Shown in pieces: positions 5,241 to 49,234 of a stretch of DNA of 64,000 nucleotides. The stretch lies in NCBI RefSeq assembly GCF_044704955.1, contig NC_091981.1:148676001-148740000 (forward strand), given 5' to 3'. Position 1 is the first letter of the stretch. The number at the start of each line of letters is the position of its first letter. The notes below the pieces were generated by a model that was given only the letters and a program-made list of their open reading frames with translations, ran no database searches and was not told where the DNA came from. Made by a program: the position numbers and the translations under genes. This stretch comes from Pristiophorus japonicus. Its lineage: Eukaryota.

Positions 5241-8139
5241 GGATAAAGTTGCTACAAAATTAAATATTTTTATTCCAATTAAGAAGCTTCACTTTGAACT
5301 TTACACAACAATTATAACCTCTATCTTATTTAAGTATCCACTCGTAAAAGCTAAAATAATCTTTGCCAACAATCCATCTCTCAATACTACATCAGGCTAA
5401 GCAGTTCAGTGTCAGTGGCATTGATCCCCATACAGGAAGACAACTGTCAGTAATACTAAACATAAAAACCCTATGGTTCAATTTCAACAATTGTATGTAA
5501 AATAAGGTGAATAACCATGTCTGTAATTATTCTTTTTAGTAATGGAAATTCTTTGGTATATTAAAATTTACACAATACTATATAAAAGCCCTTCATTGCA
5601 GAACCCATTCCATGTTTTAAAATGTTTTGCATTTAATAATTCATTAATCAGTGTTCAGGCTTTTATTCTTTTTTTCCACTTTATTTTCTTCTTTTAGATT
5701 CACATCAAGAAATGTGAGAAGCTTTATAAAAAGGGCATTCTGTTCATGAAGTTGTGTTTGATAAATGTTTATTTGTTAATCATATTGCTGTGCATCATCA
5801 TATCACTCGCATTACACGTCACCAGGACACAAATAGTGTAAGTTTCCTCTGGCTCTTTTCTTCTCCAAAACTAAAAAGGGATCAATTTTCTCCTGTTGAT
5901 AATTCGACTGAAAAATCGTTATGAACAGAAAACAAGACTCACGCTGAATCTTCCAGCAAAATTATTGATGGGAGGCCTTTGTTAAACACTTTTTGATGAA
6001 TGTGGTGCCCCTTTAAAGACAAATAACTGGAGTAAAAATAAATGACAGACATACAACCTGGGCTTTAAAAAAATATATTTTATCATGTACAGTATTTACA
6101 AAAGAATTCTTAGCAACTAAAATTGAGAAAAGTTGATAAATGAGAAAGTCTGCTCTGCTGCCACATGTATCTGTCCAGCAACATGCTGTATCGGCAACAA
6201 TACACCCATCGACAAACGGAAAACTTGTTGAATCCCATTTTTGAAAAACGACCAACAAAGACAGACGAAGCCTGTGATGAGCATTCTGCGCAGTTTGAAA
6301 GTTCCCATTTAGTCACCATCTGGCACAACCATAGATTATTTAATGATACAGTCGCACATTCGGTCCATGCTCAGTTTTGAAATACTCTAGATTAGCTGAA
6401 GCTCTCAGCATTTATTCTTGAACAGATTCAAAAAACTGCCAGCTTAGCCTATGTTATTAACTCTGAACTAGTCATAAGCCAAAATAAAATTAGCATCACT
6501 TATTCGACAAGGAGATTATTTTCTCAGGATGATTTAGGGCCTCACATCCTGTACTGACTGTAATTATAATTAGAGAACATAGAGAGAGTCAATTTTCATG
6601 GACTTTTTCCCCCCTATTCATCTCTAATGCTTTTGAAGAAATCAATTTTAACGGATGTGGCCCACCCTGTCTCTCTCTATCAATAGGAGCAAACTGCTAT
6701 ATCTATCTGTCTATTGTTTCACCGCAGGCCTTAGCCAATGGGTGGATTTCAAAATTTGCTTAGAAAAGACTGTTCTGTTGGAAGAGAGGTATCAGATTGA
6801 TGCAGAATTGATATATGAACTTCACTGTGGGATGCCATGCCCCTTTATATTCAGCTGTTGGTGCAGCCAGTAACACTGGACTTGGAAATTACCCACATCT
6901 GTGCCTCTTTTTCAAAGTGCAGATCATTAATATTCTGACAGGAAGGAATTATTTAACTGTTATACTGGCTAAAATGATTGAAGGGCTTGAAGACCTCTTC
7001 TTAACAGGTCAAGCTTTGCCAGTCACCCGGCACTTGTGGTTTTCACATGCAAATAGCTGCCCTGGAACAACTATAGAGCAAAAATGTCTGTTGACACTAC
7101 AGACCCACATGTCTGCATATCCATGATAAAAGAAATGGGAGAGTTACAACACAGTATAGACTCTGGCATTATTCATATCTATCACCTGTCGCTTCTCTAT
7201 TTAGGCACGAAAATAATCTAGAAGACAGCACCAGAAGCTCATGAATAAGCAGCCATTCCAAATGCTGGAATTCAACAAACAATCTCAATTAGTTTTGTTT
7301 TCATCTGCAACAGCCTGATTGTAAAATACATGAGAAGATTCTACATTTGTCACGGTTTAAATAAAGCATTTTAAATGAAAGATGCCTACAAAATAAATGC
7401 TCTTTTTAAATCATTCTGCCAGTTATTATCACTGAGTAAAGTGAAGAGAGTCTAAATTTAGAAAGACACAACTATTTAAACCCTGCTAAATAATTCATTA
7501 AATAGATCACGCAGGTTATTATGCATTCTGAAATGTAGACAGTTTTACATTGGGTACTTTATTATTATGCTGCAAAATATGCAATGTTGTTCATTTTTGA
7601 GGATCGCCTCTGATGGCCCTGCATTGGCTGATCCATTCAGGAAGGTCAAGGCTCATTCACTGATCTGTGGTGAGTTACGTAGGAGGCCGGCCAGGAGTGC
7701 ATTGGAATGGTCAAGTCTAGAGGTAACAAAGGCGTGGATGAGGGTTTCTGCACAGGTGGTGGACTAGACACCCTGATTAAAAAATACTTTTTTGTGATAA
7801 ACCCATTTTCAGCTGTGTTAATAAAACTGTGCCAGGTTACCACTCTTAAATATATCAAGGAATATTTTTTAATGCAAGAAAAAAAATGACATGCTAAAGC
7901 GCTACCCGATGGCGCTGGTACATGGATGATTTTATGTTTGTAAATTATGCAAATTAGTTTTAGTGGAAACTTGAACCATAACTTAATTTCAGAAAACTAG
8001 TGTAATTTTACGCACAATTGAGCCCAGATTGCTGATTGTGGCCAAAGCGCAAATTCTACGGCCTGGTGAGGAAGGATTGGCTTCAGCTATGATGCATCCC
8101 CACAATCGACTAGCCTGCTAACATTAACTTGGTAAAGTA

Positions 8140-13724: not shown

Positions 13725-14400
13725 CCCCCACCCACAAGGTCTCGGATTCCCGCCTCTGGCCTTCTGACGCCACCCCCCCCCCCCCCACCCCTCCCACACA
13801 CAAGGTCTCCGATTCTTCCCTCTGGCCTTCTGAGCTCCCTCCCCCACCCCTCCTGCCCACAAGGTCTCCGATCCCCCTGTCTGGCCTTCTGACCCCCCCC
13901 ACCCCTCCCGCCCACAAGGTCTCCGATTCTTCCCTCTGGCCTTCTGAGCCCCCACCTCCACCCCTTCCTCCACAAGGATTCTGATCCCTCCTCTGGCCTT
14001 CTGACCCCCCGCCCACCCCTCCCGCCCACAAGGTCTCCGATTCTTCCCTCTGGCCTTCTGAGCCCCCCCCCCCACCCCTCCTGCCCACAAGGTCTCCGAT
14101 CCCCCTGTCTGGCCTTCTGACCCCCCCCACCCCTCCCGCCCACAAGGTCTCCGATCCATCCTCTGGCTTTCTGACCCATGCACTCCTCCCACCCACAAGG
14201 TCTCCGATCCCCCCTCCGGCCCTCTGACCACCCACACATCACCCCCCCCTTCTCCAAGGCCTCCAATTCCCCCTCCGGCCTTCTGACCTCCCACGCCCCC
14301 ACAACCTCCGATCCCCCCTCCGACCTTCTGACTCCCCCTGTCCACGGTCTCAGATCCTCTTTCTGGCCTTCCAATCTTCGATCCCCAGCCTGCGAGCCCT
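13725..14400. repeat. C-rich minisatellite, about 12 units of ~45-65 bp, core CAAGGTCTCCGAT...TCTGGCCTTCTGA
   Basis: Directly visible tandem units. They explain the overlapping Gly/Pro-rich ORFs in the ORF track. Confidence 0.95.
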
Positions 14401-43930: not shown

Positions 43931-44104
43931 TAGTGAGCCTAAGCCAGAACAAGTTGGCTGCTAGGAGTGATCACATGATAGTAACAAATGCAGCTGCATC
44001 AATCTAGCGCCCTGCAATCCCAGCACACGATGGAGCTTCTGGCCTGGGCTCGATAGGTATTGAATTCATTGTAATGTATGCACCTGTGAGTATGCTCACA
44101 GGTT

Positions 44105-47100
44105 AAAAAACAGGAACTCATCAGGGTCTGGAACAGAGTCGCCACCAAGCGCAGCTGTCCACCGGCTGGAGTGGCGGCTGTCCTGTAGGAGCCGCTGCTC
44201 AGGAATCCGTACCTCCACGACCAAGTTTTAGGTGGCAGGCGGATGAGAGGGCTGTGGTTGGCGAGGTGACCAGGGTCAGGGACCTGCTCGATGGCGGAGG
44301 AGCGGGCTGGATGGCACCAGACGAGCTGGCACGGCGCCTAAACTGGGCCGATGTCCGCCCCGCGGCCAATGCCATCGAGTCGCTAAAAACAGCTCTGGGC
44401 CCTGACTCCGTTAGGTGTGTCGAGGAGGCTCAAGCACGTGGGGAGATCCCGTCCGAACTGACCCCCGTCCAGACGGAATTCCTCATCGGCGCCAAACCCC
44501 GGAACCTCCCTCAGGAGCCGGTGCCTCACAACTTGAGCCGCCTCAGGGAAATCCCCTCCGTGCCTTTCAGTTCTGCGCGGAGGGGTTGCCTGTACGGGTT
44601 GCTCCTGCACACTCTCCAGCTTGCCATCCTCGTCTGCCGTCCAGACACGCCATGGTGCACCATCTTGCCGCCGGAGGAGGGGGGTGCACTCTACACGGGA
44701 GTCCTTCCACTATTTATTGGGGACTTGGCCTGGAGGATGGTGCATGGAGCAGTCCCGTGCAACAAATTTTTAAGTCGGATCACGGGCTCCCAGGCCGCCT
44801 GCAATTTCTGCGGTCTGGAAGAGTCTGTGTTCCATGTTTTTATAGAATGTGCGAGGTTGTAGCCCCTGTTCCATTATTTAAAGGGGCTACTCGTCAAATT
44901 CTGGCTGCACTTCAGTCCCACACTCCTGATCTTTGGGCACCCAGTGCGGAGGGGAGAGGGTAGGTCCAAGGGCCTCCTCGTAGGACTGCTCCTGGGCACG
45001 GCCAAGGGTGCCATCAGCCAGTCCAGGCAGCGGGCAGTCAAGGGGGTCGTTCAGCGCGACTGCTTGCCTCTCTTCTGTGCGTACATCCGCGCCAGGGTGT
45101 CCCTGGAGATGGAGCACGCGGTGTTCACTGGTACGCTCACGGCCTTCTGCGAGAGATGGGCGCCGGAGGGACTGGAGTGCATTATTACCCCCGACAATCA
45201 AATTTTAATTTGATTTTATATGTTTTAGTGTTTAATTTGTTTTTATTGCCGGTTTTAGTGTCCCCCATCTTTCAGCCAGGGGGCACTTGTAAAATTTATG
45301 TTTTTAGTGCCCAAAAAACCCCCCCAAAAAAAACAAAAAAACAAAAAAAATCACAAAAAAAGGGCACTTGAAAAGTGTTTGGAGTGTCCCCCAGATCAGG
45401 GGGCACTTGATTTAATTGATTTATTGTTTCACAGCCAAAAGTGTTGTAGAGCTGTTGCACTTGAAAAATGTTTGGAGTGTCCCCACCAAAGGGGGCACTT
45501 GATTTAATTGGTTAATCATTTACAACCAAAAGAGTTGTAGAGCTGTTGGATGAGAGGGGACCTCATAGAAACATATAAAATTCTGACGGGGTTAGACAGG
45601 TTAGATGCAGGAAGAATGTTCCCAATGTTGGGGAAGTCCAGAACCAGGGGTCACAGTCTAAGGATAAGGGGTAAGCCATTTAGGACCGAGATGCGGAGGA
45701 ACTTCTTCACCCAGAGAGTGGTGAACCTGTGGAATTCTCTACCACAGAAAGTTGTTGAGGCCAATTCACTAAATACATTCAAAAAGGAGTTAGATGAGGT
45801 CCTTACTGCTAGGGGGATCAAGGGGTATGGCGCGAAAGCAGGAATGGGGTACTGAAGTTGAATGTTCAGCCATGAACTCATTGAATGGCGGTGCAGGCTA
45901 GAAGGGCCGAATGGCCTACTCCTGCACCTATTTTCTATGTTTCTATGTTTCTATAAGGGCACTTGTAAACTGTTTGGAGTGTCCCCCCCCCTTTAATAAG
46001 GGGTCACTTCATTTAATGTTTATATTTTGTTTTGCAACGAAGAAGTTGTAGAACTGTTGGGTAAGGGCACTTGTAAACTGTTTGGAGTGTCCCCTCCCAC
46101 CCCCCCTTTAATAAGAGGGCACTTGATTTAATGTTTATTTTTGTTTTGCAACAAAAGAGTTGTGGAGCTGCTGGGGTGTCCCTGGAGATGGAGCACGCGG
46201 TGTCCACTGGTACGCTCGCGGCTTTCCGCGAGAGGTGGGCATACATCATCACCCCCGGCAACCAAATTTTAATTTGATTTTATATGTTTTAAGTTTAATT
46301 GGTTTATTGTGCCAGTTTTAGTGTCCCCCTCTCCTTTTAGCCAGGGGGCACTTGCATAATTTGTGGTTTTAGTGCCCCCAAAAAACAAACAAAAAAAAAA
46401 AACCCTCCCCAAAAAAACACAAAAAAGGGCACTTGAAAACTGTTTGGAGTGTCCCCCCATGCCACTCCCCCCCTAACCCCCCCCCCCCCCACCGCTTTTA
46501 ATCAGGGGGCACTTGAACTAATCGTTTAATTTGTTTCACAACAAAATAGTTCTGGAGCTGTTGGAGTGCCTTTGGAGATGGAGCACGCGGTGTCCTCCGG
46601 TACGCTCGCGACCTTCCGCGAGAGGTGGGCGCCAGAGGGACTGGAGTGCATCATCACCCCCGGCAAGCAAATTTTAATTTGATCGTAATGGCTAAAGTTT
46701 AATTTGTTTAAGTTGTCGGTTTTATTGCCCCCACCGCCCTGTTAGCCGGGGGCACTTGTATAACTTGTGTTTTAGTACCCTCAAAAAAAAACCCTAAAAA
46801 AACAACGGGGCACTTGATTTAATGATTGTTTTAAGATTACAACAAAATAGTTGTAGAGCTGTTTTGCCTGGAGGGTGTTGCACGGAGCAGTCCTGTACAA
46901 TAAGTTTTTAAGTCGGTTCACGGGCTCCCAGGCCGCCTGTAATTTCTGCGGTCTGGAAGAGTCCGTGTACCACGTATTTATTAAATGTGCGATGTTGCAG
47001 CCCCTCTTCCAATAGTTGAAGGGGCTGCTCCTCAAATTCTGGTTGCACTTCAGTCCCCACACTCCAGATCTTTGGGCACCCTGTGAGGAGCGGAGTGGGC

Positions 47101-48172
47101 AGGTTGGAATGCCTCGTCGAAGGACTGCTCCTGGGTATGGCCAAGGGGGCCATCAGCCGGTCCAGGCAGCGGGTGGTCAAGGGGGTCATTTAGCCCGACT
47201 GCCGGCCTCTCTTCCGCGGTTACATCTGAGCTAGGGTGTCCCTGGAGATGGAGCACGCGGTGTCCACCAGTATGCTCGTGGCCTTCCTCAAGAGGTGGGC
47301 GCCGGAGGAACTGGAGTGCATCATCACACCCGGCAACCAAATTTTAATTTAATCCTTAATGTTTAAAGTTTAATTTTTCTATGCTTGTTGGTTTTAGTGC
47401 CTCCCCCCCCCCTTTTTAGCCAGGGGACACTTGTATAATTTGTGTTTTTGTACCCTCAAGCAAGGGGGCACTTGAAAGTTCTTTGGAGTGTGCCCCCCTC
47501 CCCCGCCCTCCCTTTAATCAGGGGGCACTTGATTATTAGTTTACAACAAAATAGTGGTAAAGCTGTTCCGCCTGGAGGGTGTTGCACGGAGCTGCCCTGC
47601 GCAATAAGTTTTTAAGTCGGTTCACAGATTCCCAGGCCGCCTGCAATTTCTGCGGCCTGGAGGAGTCCGTGTTCCATGTTTATGTTGTATGTGTGAGATT
47701 GCAGCCCCTCTTCCAATATTTGAAGGGGCTGCTCCTCAAATTCTGGTTGCACTTCAGTCCCACGCTCCTGATCTTTGGGCACCCTGTGCAGAGGGAAGCG
47801 GACAGGTCAGAAGGGCTCCTCATAGGACTGCTCCTGGGCATGGCCAAGGTGGCCATCAACCGGGTCCATGCAGCAGGCGGTCAAGGGAGTCATTGAGCCC
47901 GACTGCCTGCCTCTCTTCCGCGGTTACATCTGTGTCAGGGTGTCCCTGGAGATGGAGCACGTGATGTCCACCGCTATGCTTGTGGCTTTCCGGGACAGGA
48001 CGGACTGGATGCACCATCACCCCTGGCAACCAAATTTAAATTTGATCCACTAATCTCTAAAATGTAATTTGTTTAAGTTTGTTGGTTTCAGTGCCCCCTT
48101 TTTAATCAGGGGCCACTTGATTTACAGGTGCAACTTAAAATAGTTGTAGAGCTGTTGATTAAAATTAAAATA
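44105..48172 (+). mobile_element. Head-to-tail array of nine 5'-truncated Tx1-clade insertions separated by a 15-bp target duplication
   Basis: Copies of GTTGTAGAGCTGTTG (0-3 mismatches) start at 45443, 45534, 46045, 46159, 46549, 46850, 47554, 48143 and 48173. Each is preceded by the A-rich Tx1 3' end (typically CAA(C)AAAAGA or AAAATA). Unit bodies match 9651-11057. Confidence 0.9.
45549..45953 (+). mobile_element. CR1 3' end inside the Tx1 array
   Basis: MRGDLIETYKILTGLDRLDAGRMFP...GMGY* and (TTTCTATG)n tail. Confidence 0.95.
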
Positions 48173-49234
48173 GTTGTAAAGATGTTGAATTGGGAGTGGC
48201 TTAGCCAGTCATGTGATATTCATAAGACTCAATAAAACCCCAGTCAGATGAGTTTAGGGGATCCACTATGAGGCATACGGTTGTGAGCCTAGTGTATGAA
48301 CTGGTAATGTGTAGTGTGATTGTTAATTAACCAAATAGTTCTTAATAGCAATGTGTTGCTATGAATTCTTAAGTAAAGAACCCATGAAGCAAATACATTA
48401 CATGCACAAACAACATTATACCAGAACTAGGTCTTGGAAGGACATCAGCGTCACTGAGACAAGTGTCACTGCAATCTTCGAAGGCTCTATGGTGCAGTCG
48501 CAGTGCAATCTCCTAACCTCCTGGCAGTGAGGTACCATCACATGGGAGTAAATGGTCAGGTTTATACGCGAGAAGAGCTTTTAGCACAAGAGGTAGACAT
48601 GGTGATAAAAAACAGTATGAAGAGACTATCTAGAAAAAGCTTTGGCAAATTGGTGTGTGTGTGCGTGCATGTTGTGAGTTACTGATTTGTATCAGATCTT
48701 ATTCCCACTACTAATTTTTGTCTCACAAAAATTTGGAGGGTTTTGCAGCCAGATCTTTAGTTGCTGCAATTATAATTGTGAAAAAGGATATTTCTCTGTG
48801 GAAGACAAAGAAGATAGTGAAATCAGGGATGCAAGGCAGGTCAGATTGCATAGAAACATACTGTCCCTAATCCTCTGTCCCTTTCAGAAGTTGCTAGGTT
48901 CACACTGAAACTAATTATAACATTTTCCACATTTGGAAGCTTTAAAGTAAGGATGGTTGAAACACACAAGAATTCTGTAAAGGATAATCCATTGTAAGCA
49001 GTTAATACCTAATAGCAGAGAATGGAGAGCTTAGATTATAGTTTGCTTACCAATGAACACAGAATAGATATTGAGCAAAAATGAGTAAGGGTAGTCATTT
49101 TTGTTGCTGTTGACAATGTACAACATACATTAAATGCAGTAAACATGAATTAATTGTAGTAGTTCTGAATGAGCCCTTAGATCCATGGCTAAGTAAATAC
49201 CACCTAAGTACATCATGCTCACATGATGAATAAT

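Follow-up and report, generated by a model that had tools for sequence, protein, structure and literature searches.

A 64,000-nucleotide (nt) stretch of the Pristiophorus japonicus genome (contig NC_091981.1, positions 148,676,001 to 148,740,000 of assembly GCF_044704955.1; hereafter the window) contains, at 44070–48402, a solo long terminal repeat (LTR) into which nine fragments of a Tx1-clade long interspersed nuclear element (LINE) are packed one behind the other, each followed by a short copy of the target site. An original prediction, drawn from the sequence of the window alone, read this arrangement as repeated insertion of a target-specific retrotransposon into one site of another retrotransposon's LTR. 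It overlooked the two properties of such arrays that form the subject of this article: their polarity, with younger copies standing in front, and the 5′ truncation points that adjacent copies have in common.

The array lies entirely on the forward strand. It opens with the 34-nt 5′ arm of a Gypsy-type LTR (44070–44103), which is joined to the target in empty copies and belongs to an LTR with flanks resembling a primer-binding site (PBS) and a polypurine tract (PPT) in two-LTR copies. Unit 1 (44104–45443), presumably the youngest, comprises the C-terminus of open reading frame 2 (ORF2), with a zf-RVT match at E 2.7e-5 that falls below the curated cut-off, followed by a long 3′ untranslated region (UTR) and a G-class-like tail; its 5′ target copy has been lost but for a single T before about eight non-matching bases. 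The 14-bp target-site copy 1 (45444–45457) leads to unit 2 (45458–45534), 77 nt long with a G tail and a start of its own, and behind target copy 2 (45535–45548) comes unit 3 (45549–46045), about 92 nt of Tx1 sequence with a G-class tail, whose head was later invaded by a 405-nt LINE 3′ fragment that we take to be CR1-like (45550–45954). The window holds a second copy of this fragment, to which it is 76% identical over 391 nt, and in public-run contigs loose ends appear at 45550 and 45954. At least three arrays (those of the window, L100, and L107) have a CR1-like fragment at or near the head of a Tx1 unit, immediately after the preceding target copy. Target copy 3 (46046–46059) carries one mismatch, and unit 4 (46060–46159; 100 nt, G tail) shares its start with unit 3 to within 3 nt. 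Target copies 4 (46160–46173) and 5 (46550–46563) have an A>G variant in common and enclose unit 5 (46174–46549; 376 nt, T tail), which begins at position 7270 of the full-length element, exactly as does unit 6 (46564–46850; 287 nt, T tail). Behind target copy 6 (46851–46864), units 7 (46865–47554; 690 nt, T tail) and 8 (47569–48143; 575 nt, short T tail) both start exactly at 6932, with bodies 87% alike and different tails, on either side of target copy 7 (47555–47568; three mismatches). Target copy 8 (48144–48157) precedes unit 9 (48158–48173), a 16-nt T-tail remnant and presumably the oldest; similar units of 19–22 nt, barely more than the element terminus, occur in other arrays, three alike in L061 and also in L175. 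Target copy 9 (48174–48187) runs straight into the 215-nt 3′ arm of the LTR (48188–48402), with its AATAAA and terminal inverted repeat. From 5′ to 3′, the tail class is G in the first four units and T in the other five.

The predicted nine same-strand Tx1 3′ fragments, each with its motif, are thus present within 44104–48173, with the correction that unit 3 is mostly CR1-like insertion; under the boundaries first given, they measured 1341, 76, 496, 99, 375, 286, 689, 574, and 15 nt. With 0–3 mismatches allowed, the motif occurs nine times in the array (45443–48187) and 11 times in the whole window, against 1.85 expected from shuffling, and none of 100 shuffles equaled the 11. Translation of the long units gives the C-terminus of a LINE ORF2; where long pairs overlap, they are 82–91% identical, while their 3′ UTRs differ. 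Once all nine are removed, what remains is a TG...CA element of 263 nt whose terminal inverted repeat is 10 bp long, in agreement with natural empty copies of 263–276 nt, although the true empty site has one extra T. Contigs of public runs connect 44104 to about 48183, possibly through paralogous empty copies. The 5-bp flanks of this LTR agree at three of five positions only. A simple satellite, which the original prediction had already argued against, and a local duplication of the array were both rejected: Tandem Repeats Finder reported nothing across the array interval, the tails differ, and all five units tested have a better match at another locus, so that the units do not all descend from one local copy by tandem duplication. 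The best genome matches of unit 1 reach about 90%.

The host of these insertions was characterized through its LTR. A search with the 3′ arm returned 3,544 candidates, of which 40 were scored and 30 fetched; of the 29 loci other than the query itself, 13 are empty, whereas in 16 Tx1 is inserted at the identical site. In a second set of 30 loci, chosen by the LTR 3′ end, 15 are filled, nine empty, and six unclassified. Single-motif empty copies, whose absence would have spoken against an LTR target, are therefore abundant. Natural empty copies are flanked by 5-bp duplications, and a perfect one is seen in L003, L008, L014, L015, L016, and L115. Sixteen copies with a common PBS-like sequence downstream were fetched; in eight of them, another LTR arm lies in matching orientation, mostly with a purine tract before it, and seven LTR pairs are 89–94% identical. 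In the degraded internal region, unaltered open stretches match integrase, RNase H, and, weakly, reverse transcriptase (RT); RNase H precedes integrase in L124, the weak RT match lies in L120, and the integrase matches are named K02A2.6-like and Gypsy integrase-like. By these sequence features, the host is classed as a decayed Gypsy-type element with two TG...CA LTRs, a putative PBS, and a PPT. The possibility that the host is a DNA transposon bearing short inverted repeats was rejected on the two-LTR copies, the PBS and PPT, and the RT, RNase H, and integrase matches. In five two-LTR copies with a recognizable 3′ target (L112, L115, L116, L122, and L124), the 3′ LTR is empty in all five and the 5′ LTR filled in three (L116, L122, and L124), and in L121 the 3′ LTR is filled; these numbers are too small to call a fill bias between the LTRs.

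The inserting element is represented in full by L091, a 7,622-nt copy between two target copies inside a solo LTR. Its ORF2 encodes 1,296 amino acids, with an N-terminal apurinic-type endonuclease (PF03372, E 3e-12) and an RT (PF00078, E 4e-38), and is 48% identical over 99% of its length to the 149-kDa ORF2 protein of Xenopus Tx1; the closest named Tx1 pieces, at 69%, come from cartilaginous fishes. An endonuclease- and RT-bearing ORF2, nearest named proteins that are Tx1, and 5′-truncated copies with target duplications together place it, on the predicted protein, in the Tx1 clade. Its 3′ end bears no poly(A) tail and instead a short A-rich run, and falls by a single base into two classes, G and T, which are read from 7 bases with some copies misclassified (as in L177). 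At L096 (G000:C19:56505500-56515000), one array contains a copy that begins like the full-length element and is preceded by a second long copy and by a short unit. Other units between target copies are derived from 5S ribosomal RNA (rRNA; RF00001, 54–77 bits) and end in the Tx1 tail (L183:3711-3829, L183:4641-4757, and, on the reverse strand, L109:5977-6096); they are probably a 5S-headed short interspersed nuclear element (SINE) or a 5S–Tx1 chimera mobilized by this Tx1 into the same site.

The insertion site lies 34 nt into the LTR, where the duplication is 14 bp. The original prediction took the whole motif for regenerated target. Most of it is indeed target derived, but its leading G is the element's own 3′ end, as is the following T at off-target sites, and the duplicated target is 13–14 bp. 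At off-target ends, an upstream duplication of 13–16 bp was found for 15 of 18, and in 11 of 14 clean cases the upstream copy does not begin with T while the downstream copy does, which identifies that T as element derived and points to TG(T) as the cut core. A motif that merely belonged to the Tx1 3′ UTR, followed by random flanks, is rejected by these off-target duplications and by the array-specific variants of the motif, point variants of which are common to copies along an array. Specificity was gauged with 30 G-class 3′ ends gathered by a pattern that omits the motif. The full target follows 17 of these ends, an eighteenth is in an LTR whose target is shortened, and 12 lie elsewhere; by our own reading of the search output, 22 of 29 best Tx1 matches are at the target. 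The 18 of 30 in the LTR exceed the 20% of flanks of one type that marks a target-specific family (Kojima, 2015). The predicted parasitism of another retrotransposon's LTR thus stands, as a preference and not as an exclusive habit.

Genome-wide exact patterns, whose counts are lower bounds because diverged copies are missed, give 2,562 G and 6,456 T tail–target junctions, of which 261 G and 2,519 T abut the LTR 3′ arm, making 2,780 filled LTRs beside 1,075 empty sites; approximately 72% of LTRs are therefore filled. So high an occupancy could in principle arise by hitchhiking, if an LTR element that already bore Tx1 fragments in its LTR had been amplified. However, the 59 first-in units, taken as the earliest arrivals in their arrays, start at scattered positions, with 9 of 1,711 pairs lying within 3 nt of each other, and two-LTR copies exist with one LTR filled and the other empty. 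The insertions were therefore independent and later than LTR integration; hitchhiking is refuted and scarcely credible.

Within the arrays, the younger tail class stands in front. After removal of seven of 106 arrays as duplicates, 99 with 234 units remained; in these, 130 of 136 unlike pairs have the G unit on the 5′ side of the T unit, and so do 20 of 20 pairs at 14 loci by coordinates listed on contig C1. Congruently, 39.0% of the 6,456 T-tail junctions abut the LTR 3′ arm as against 10.2% of the 2,562 G-tail junctions (odds ratio 5.6). The front class is also the less diverged from its class majority, with a median of 0.055 for G (n = 65) versus 0.076 for T (n = 80; p 1e-9), and in 25 of 34 adjacent pairs, including 12 of 17 within one class, divergence is lower in the 5′ unit. 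In L099, L100, L138, L158, L165, and L187, a block of target variants occupies the 5′ side and leaves the last copy unaffected. The arrays thus work like an R1-type polarized tandem array, with new units probably added at the 5′ target copy, without being members of that group.

The second property is the coincidence of 5′ ends. Mapped on a full-length reference, adjacent units have the same start in 53 of 87 pairs, compared with 183 of 16,090 cross-array pairs. Since mapping failed for 46 of the 234 units, many of them near a deletion in the reference copy, and seven units shorter than 25 nt had been set aside, the comparison was repeated reference-free and gave 65 of 126 versus 216 of 25,363 (0.85%). 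The coincidence persists in sets not picked for array size (20 of 44) and at one pair per array (30 of 54). Conceivably, the element possesses truncation hot spots, owing either to microhomology with the target end at a few places or to short non-autonomous subfamilies with fixed 5′ ends that insert repeatedly. A few starts do recur across arrays, and first-in units show a mean target-end microhomology of 0.81 nt over a background of 0.39 nt (n = 58). Yet starts are shared by 0.85–1.1% of cross-array pairs versus 52–61% of neighbors, first-in starts are dispersed, and what neighbors have in common includes locus-private junction bases and deletions. As the main cause, hot spots are refuted, and any such explanation is very improbable.

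Common starts are accompanied by copied junctions. Within the first 6 nt, 31 of 50 non-family bases are common to both neighbors, and two private features recur in neighbors with unlike tails: in L187 a deletion inside the unit, and in L177 a head of 50 nt that has been rearranged. Across 22 long pairs, 36 of 133 rare variants (27%) are shared within 120 nt of the start and 33 of 422 (8%) beyond 200 nt, the latter close to the 7 of 98 in adjacent pairs with different starts. Private tracts of 50–160 nt matching the resident occur in L174, L177, L187, and L198, and in most pairs such tracts are short or undetectable. The bodies, by contrast with the heads, are not duplicates: among 18 long pairs, the neighbor is the best proximal match in six and the best distal match in one, a near-identical tail is found in one of 65 same-start pairs, and in 20 of 53 a G unit is joined to a T resident.

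These data bear directly on another route to a common start, namely, tandem duplication by unequal crossing-over or slippage between target copies, after which complementary DNA (cDNA) of a younger subfamily overwrites the tail of the 5′ duplicate. Such a history would directly yield common starts and junction bases, L182 and the 19-nt units of L061 do resemble plain duplicates, and a small excess of distal identity to the neighbor is seen in 16 of 18 pairs. However, the overwriting would have to replace nearly the entire unit and should have reached the last unit as well, although this belongs to the older class in nearly all cases, and the single best distal match among 18 pairs, together with distal sharing at the level of different-start pairs, leaves little of the predicted duplicate. 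For long pairs this route is largely refuted, and overall it is improbable.

The new copies that end at their neighbor's start, about half of them, are, instead, probably joined by homology-guided pairing with the resident copy. Non-LTR retrotransposons insert by target-primed reverse transcription, in which the nicked target primes synthesis of the first cDNA strand. In the proposed sequence of events, the Tx1 endonuclease would nick the bottom strand at the TG(T) core; the front target copy, which retains its upstream LTR context, could be cut again, and newcomers would likely enter there by target-primed reverse transcription. The cDNA would grow from the re-nicked front copy up to the position corresponding to the resident's start, whereupon the top strand, made up of the target and of a stretch of the resident's head that ranges from a few to about 150 nt, would pair with the cDNA and prime the second strand. 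The newcomer would thereby be truncated where the resident is, take on its junction bases, and sometimes carry its private mutations, and the first truncated copy would cap the length of most later arrivals at its site. Of 62 newcomers that reached the neighbor's start, 53 stopped there; where the starts differ (34 pairs), the unit on the 5′ side is the shorter of the two in 25 cases and the longer in nine. Nor does the effect depend on the LTR, as off-target sites also hold stacks with common starts, three copies in L094 (G000:C9:137334000-137343900), where T class is again last, and two in L108, each with its own 15–16 bp duplication. In L014, two neighbors have the same first 7 nt and then follow the element from different places, 7190 and 7164, which would fit annealing of a short resident overhang at another microhomology.

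A related route resembles synthesis-dependent strand annealing (SDSA): the cDNA would halt anywhere in the homologous region, switch to the resident DNA, and, without any early second nick, copy back through its head and through the target. This accounts for the private tracts of 50–160 nt, and human L1 offers a parallel in templated insertions of <250 bp copied from within 15 bp of the site, as described in 10.1101/2024.08.27.596794. The switch should, however, leave tracts along the whole unit, whereas sharing is near background by 200–300 nt, and it should rescue nearly all short cDNAs, whereas 25 of 87 newcomers are still shorter than the resident. It is a variant that overlaps with homology-guided joining, possible although on balance rather unlikely to be the route taken.

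Several observations weigh against homology-guided joining or the insertion order on which it builds. About half of adjacent pairs have no common start; L187 and L174 alone supply 21 of the 36 proximal shared variants, and a paired test of proximal versus distal sharing in the 18 long pairs is not significant (p 0.25). The small distal identity excess to the neighbor, +1.2 points, is unexplained, and a test for chimerism at sites diagnostic of the G and T subfamilies, five sites only, came out equal to its control. T precedes G in six of the 136 unlike pairs, target variants form a 3′ block in L061 and are scattered in several arrays, and the 12 motif-free ends outside the LTR count against strict targeting. 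The loci come mostly from contig C1 and exact-pattern lists and represent 99 arrays of several thousand. Finally, the strand geometry is deduced from end products. Elsewhere in the window, 13777–14292 is occupied by a tandem repeat of about nine copies with a unit of 57–59 nt.

LTR targeting and stacking are in themselves ordinary for the Tx1 clade; it is the inherited 5′ ends that may be new. The original prediction knew of no description of such a target pair, but insertion of Tx1 into LTR elements has been published before: the crocodilian Tx1-8_Crp and Tx1-4_AMi, of the Keno/Tx1-Mar group, prefer a group of LTR retrotransposons (PMC4494074; Kojima, 2015). The same source gives tandem SINEU-3 insertions that sandwich a target duplication. 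In contrast to the present case, its relevant passages specify neither an LTR family nor a site, and mention neither polarity nor shared truncation. The Xenopus Tx1 (Tx1L; UniRef YTX2) likewise combines an endonuclease- and RT-bearing ORF2 with a transposon target, Tx1D (per PMC4494074), yet that target is a piggyBac-type DNA transposon rather than an LTR. A functional parallel belongs to another clade with another target. R1 arrays in Drosophila 28S ribosomal DNA grow by insertion into the 14-bp duplication 5′ of residents, thereby matching the present arrays in both the duplication between units and the side of growth, and annealing of cDNA to the top strand has been proposed for R1 second-strand synthesis (PMC2718515; Stage & Eickbush, 2009). 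R1 turns over fast (PMC2718515), whereas the arrays described here are dispersed and 5–8% diverged, and hence keep an age-ordered record. Inheritance of a neighbor's truncation point does not figure in the R1 account as given in the relevant parts of PMC2718515. For human L1, templated and chimeric insertions are attributed to SDSA-like pairing of cDNA with nearby homologous DNA (10.1101/2024.08.27.596794; PMC8087252). Those are rare, with 22 cases and non-L1 templates in the parts of these sources that bear on the point, whereas here about half of stacked insertions would be involved, because a homologous copy always lies 14 bp from the nick. A literature search for shared truncation in tandem insertions, within a scope that left out most subscription papers and Repbase Reports, found no description.

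Second-strand formation in non-LTR insertion has been called not understood (PMC13486585, 2026, in the passage concerned). With a homologous copy 14 bp from the nick at thousands of loci, homology-guided junction formation becomes measurable in a genome and testable in cells, which bears on why most non-LTR copies are 5′-truncated and on how 5′ junctions are made. For site-specific insertion tools, re-targeting an occupied site could give truncated products. For the element itself, the arrays suggest a truncation trap, a proposal for which the chances stand about even: a resident LINE would capture later cDNA and impose its own 5′ end, so that an element whose targets are about 72% filled would turn most of its new insertions into dead fragments and limit its own spread, while its arrays would log the succession of subfamilies. 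If this is true, thousands of age-ordered arrays provide natural data on the sealing of LINE 5′ junctions.

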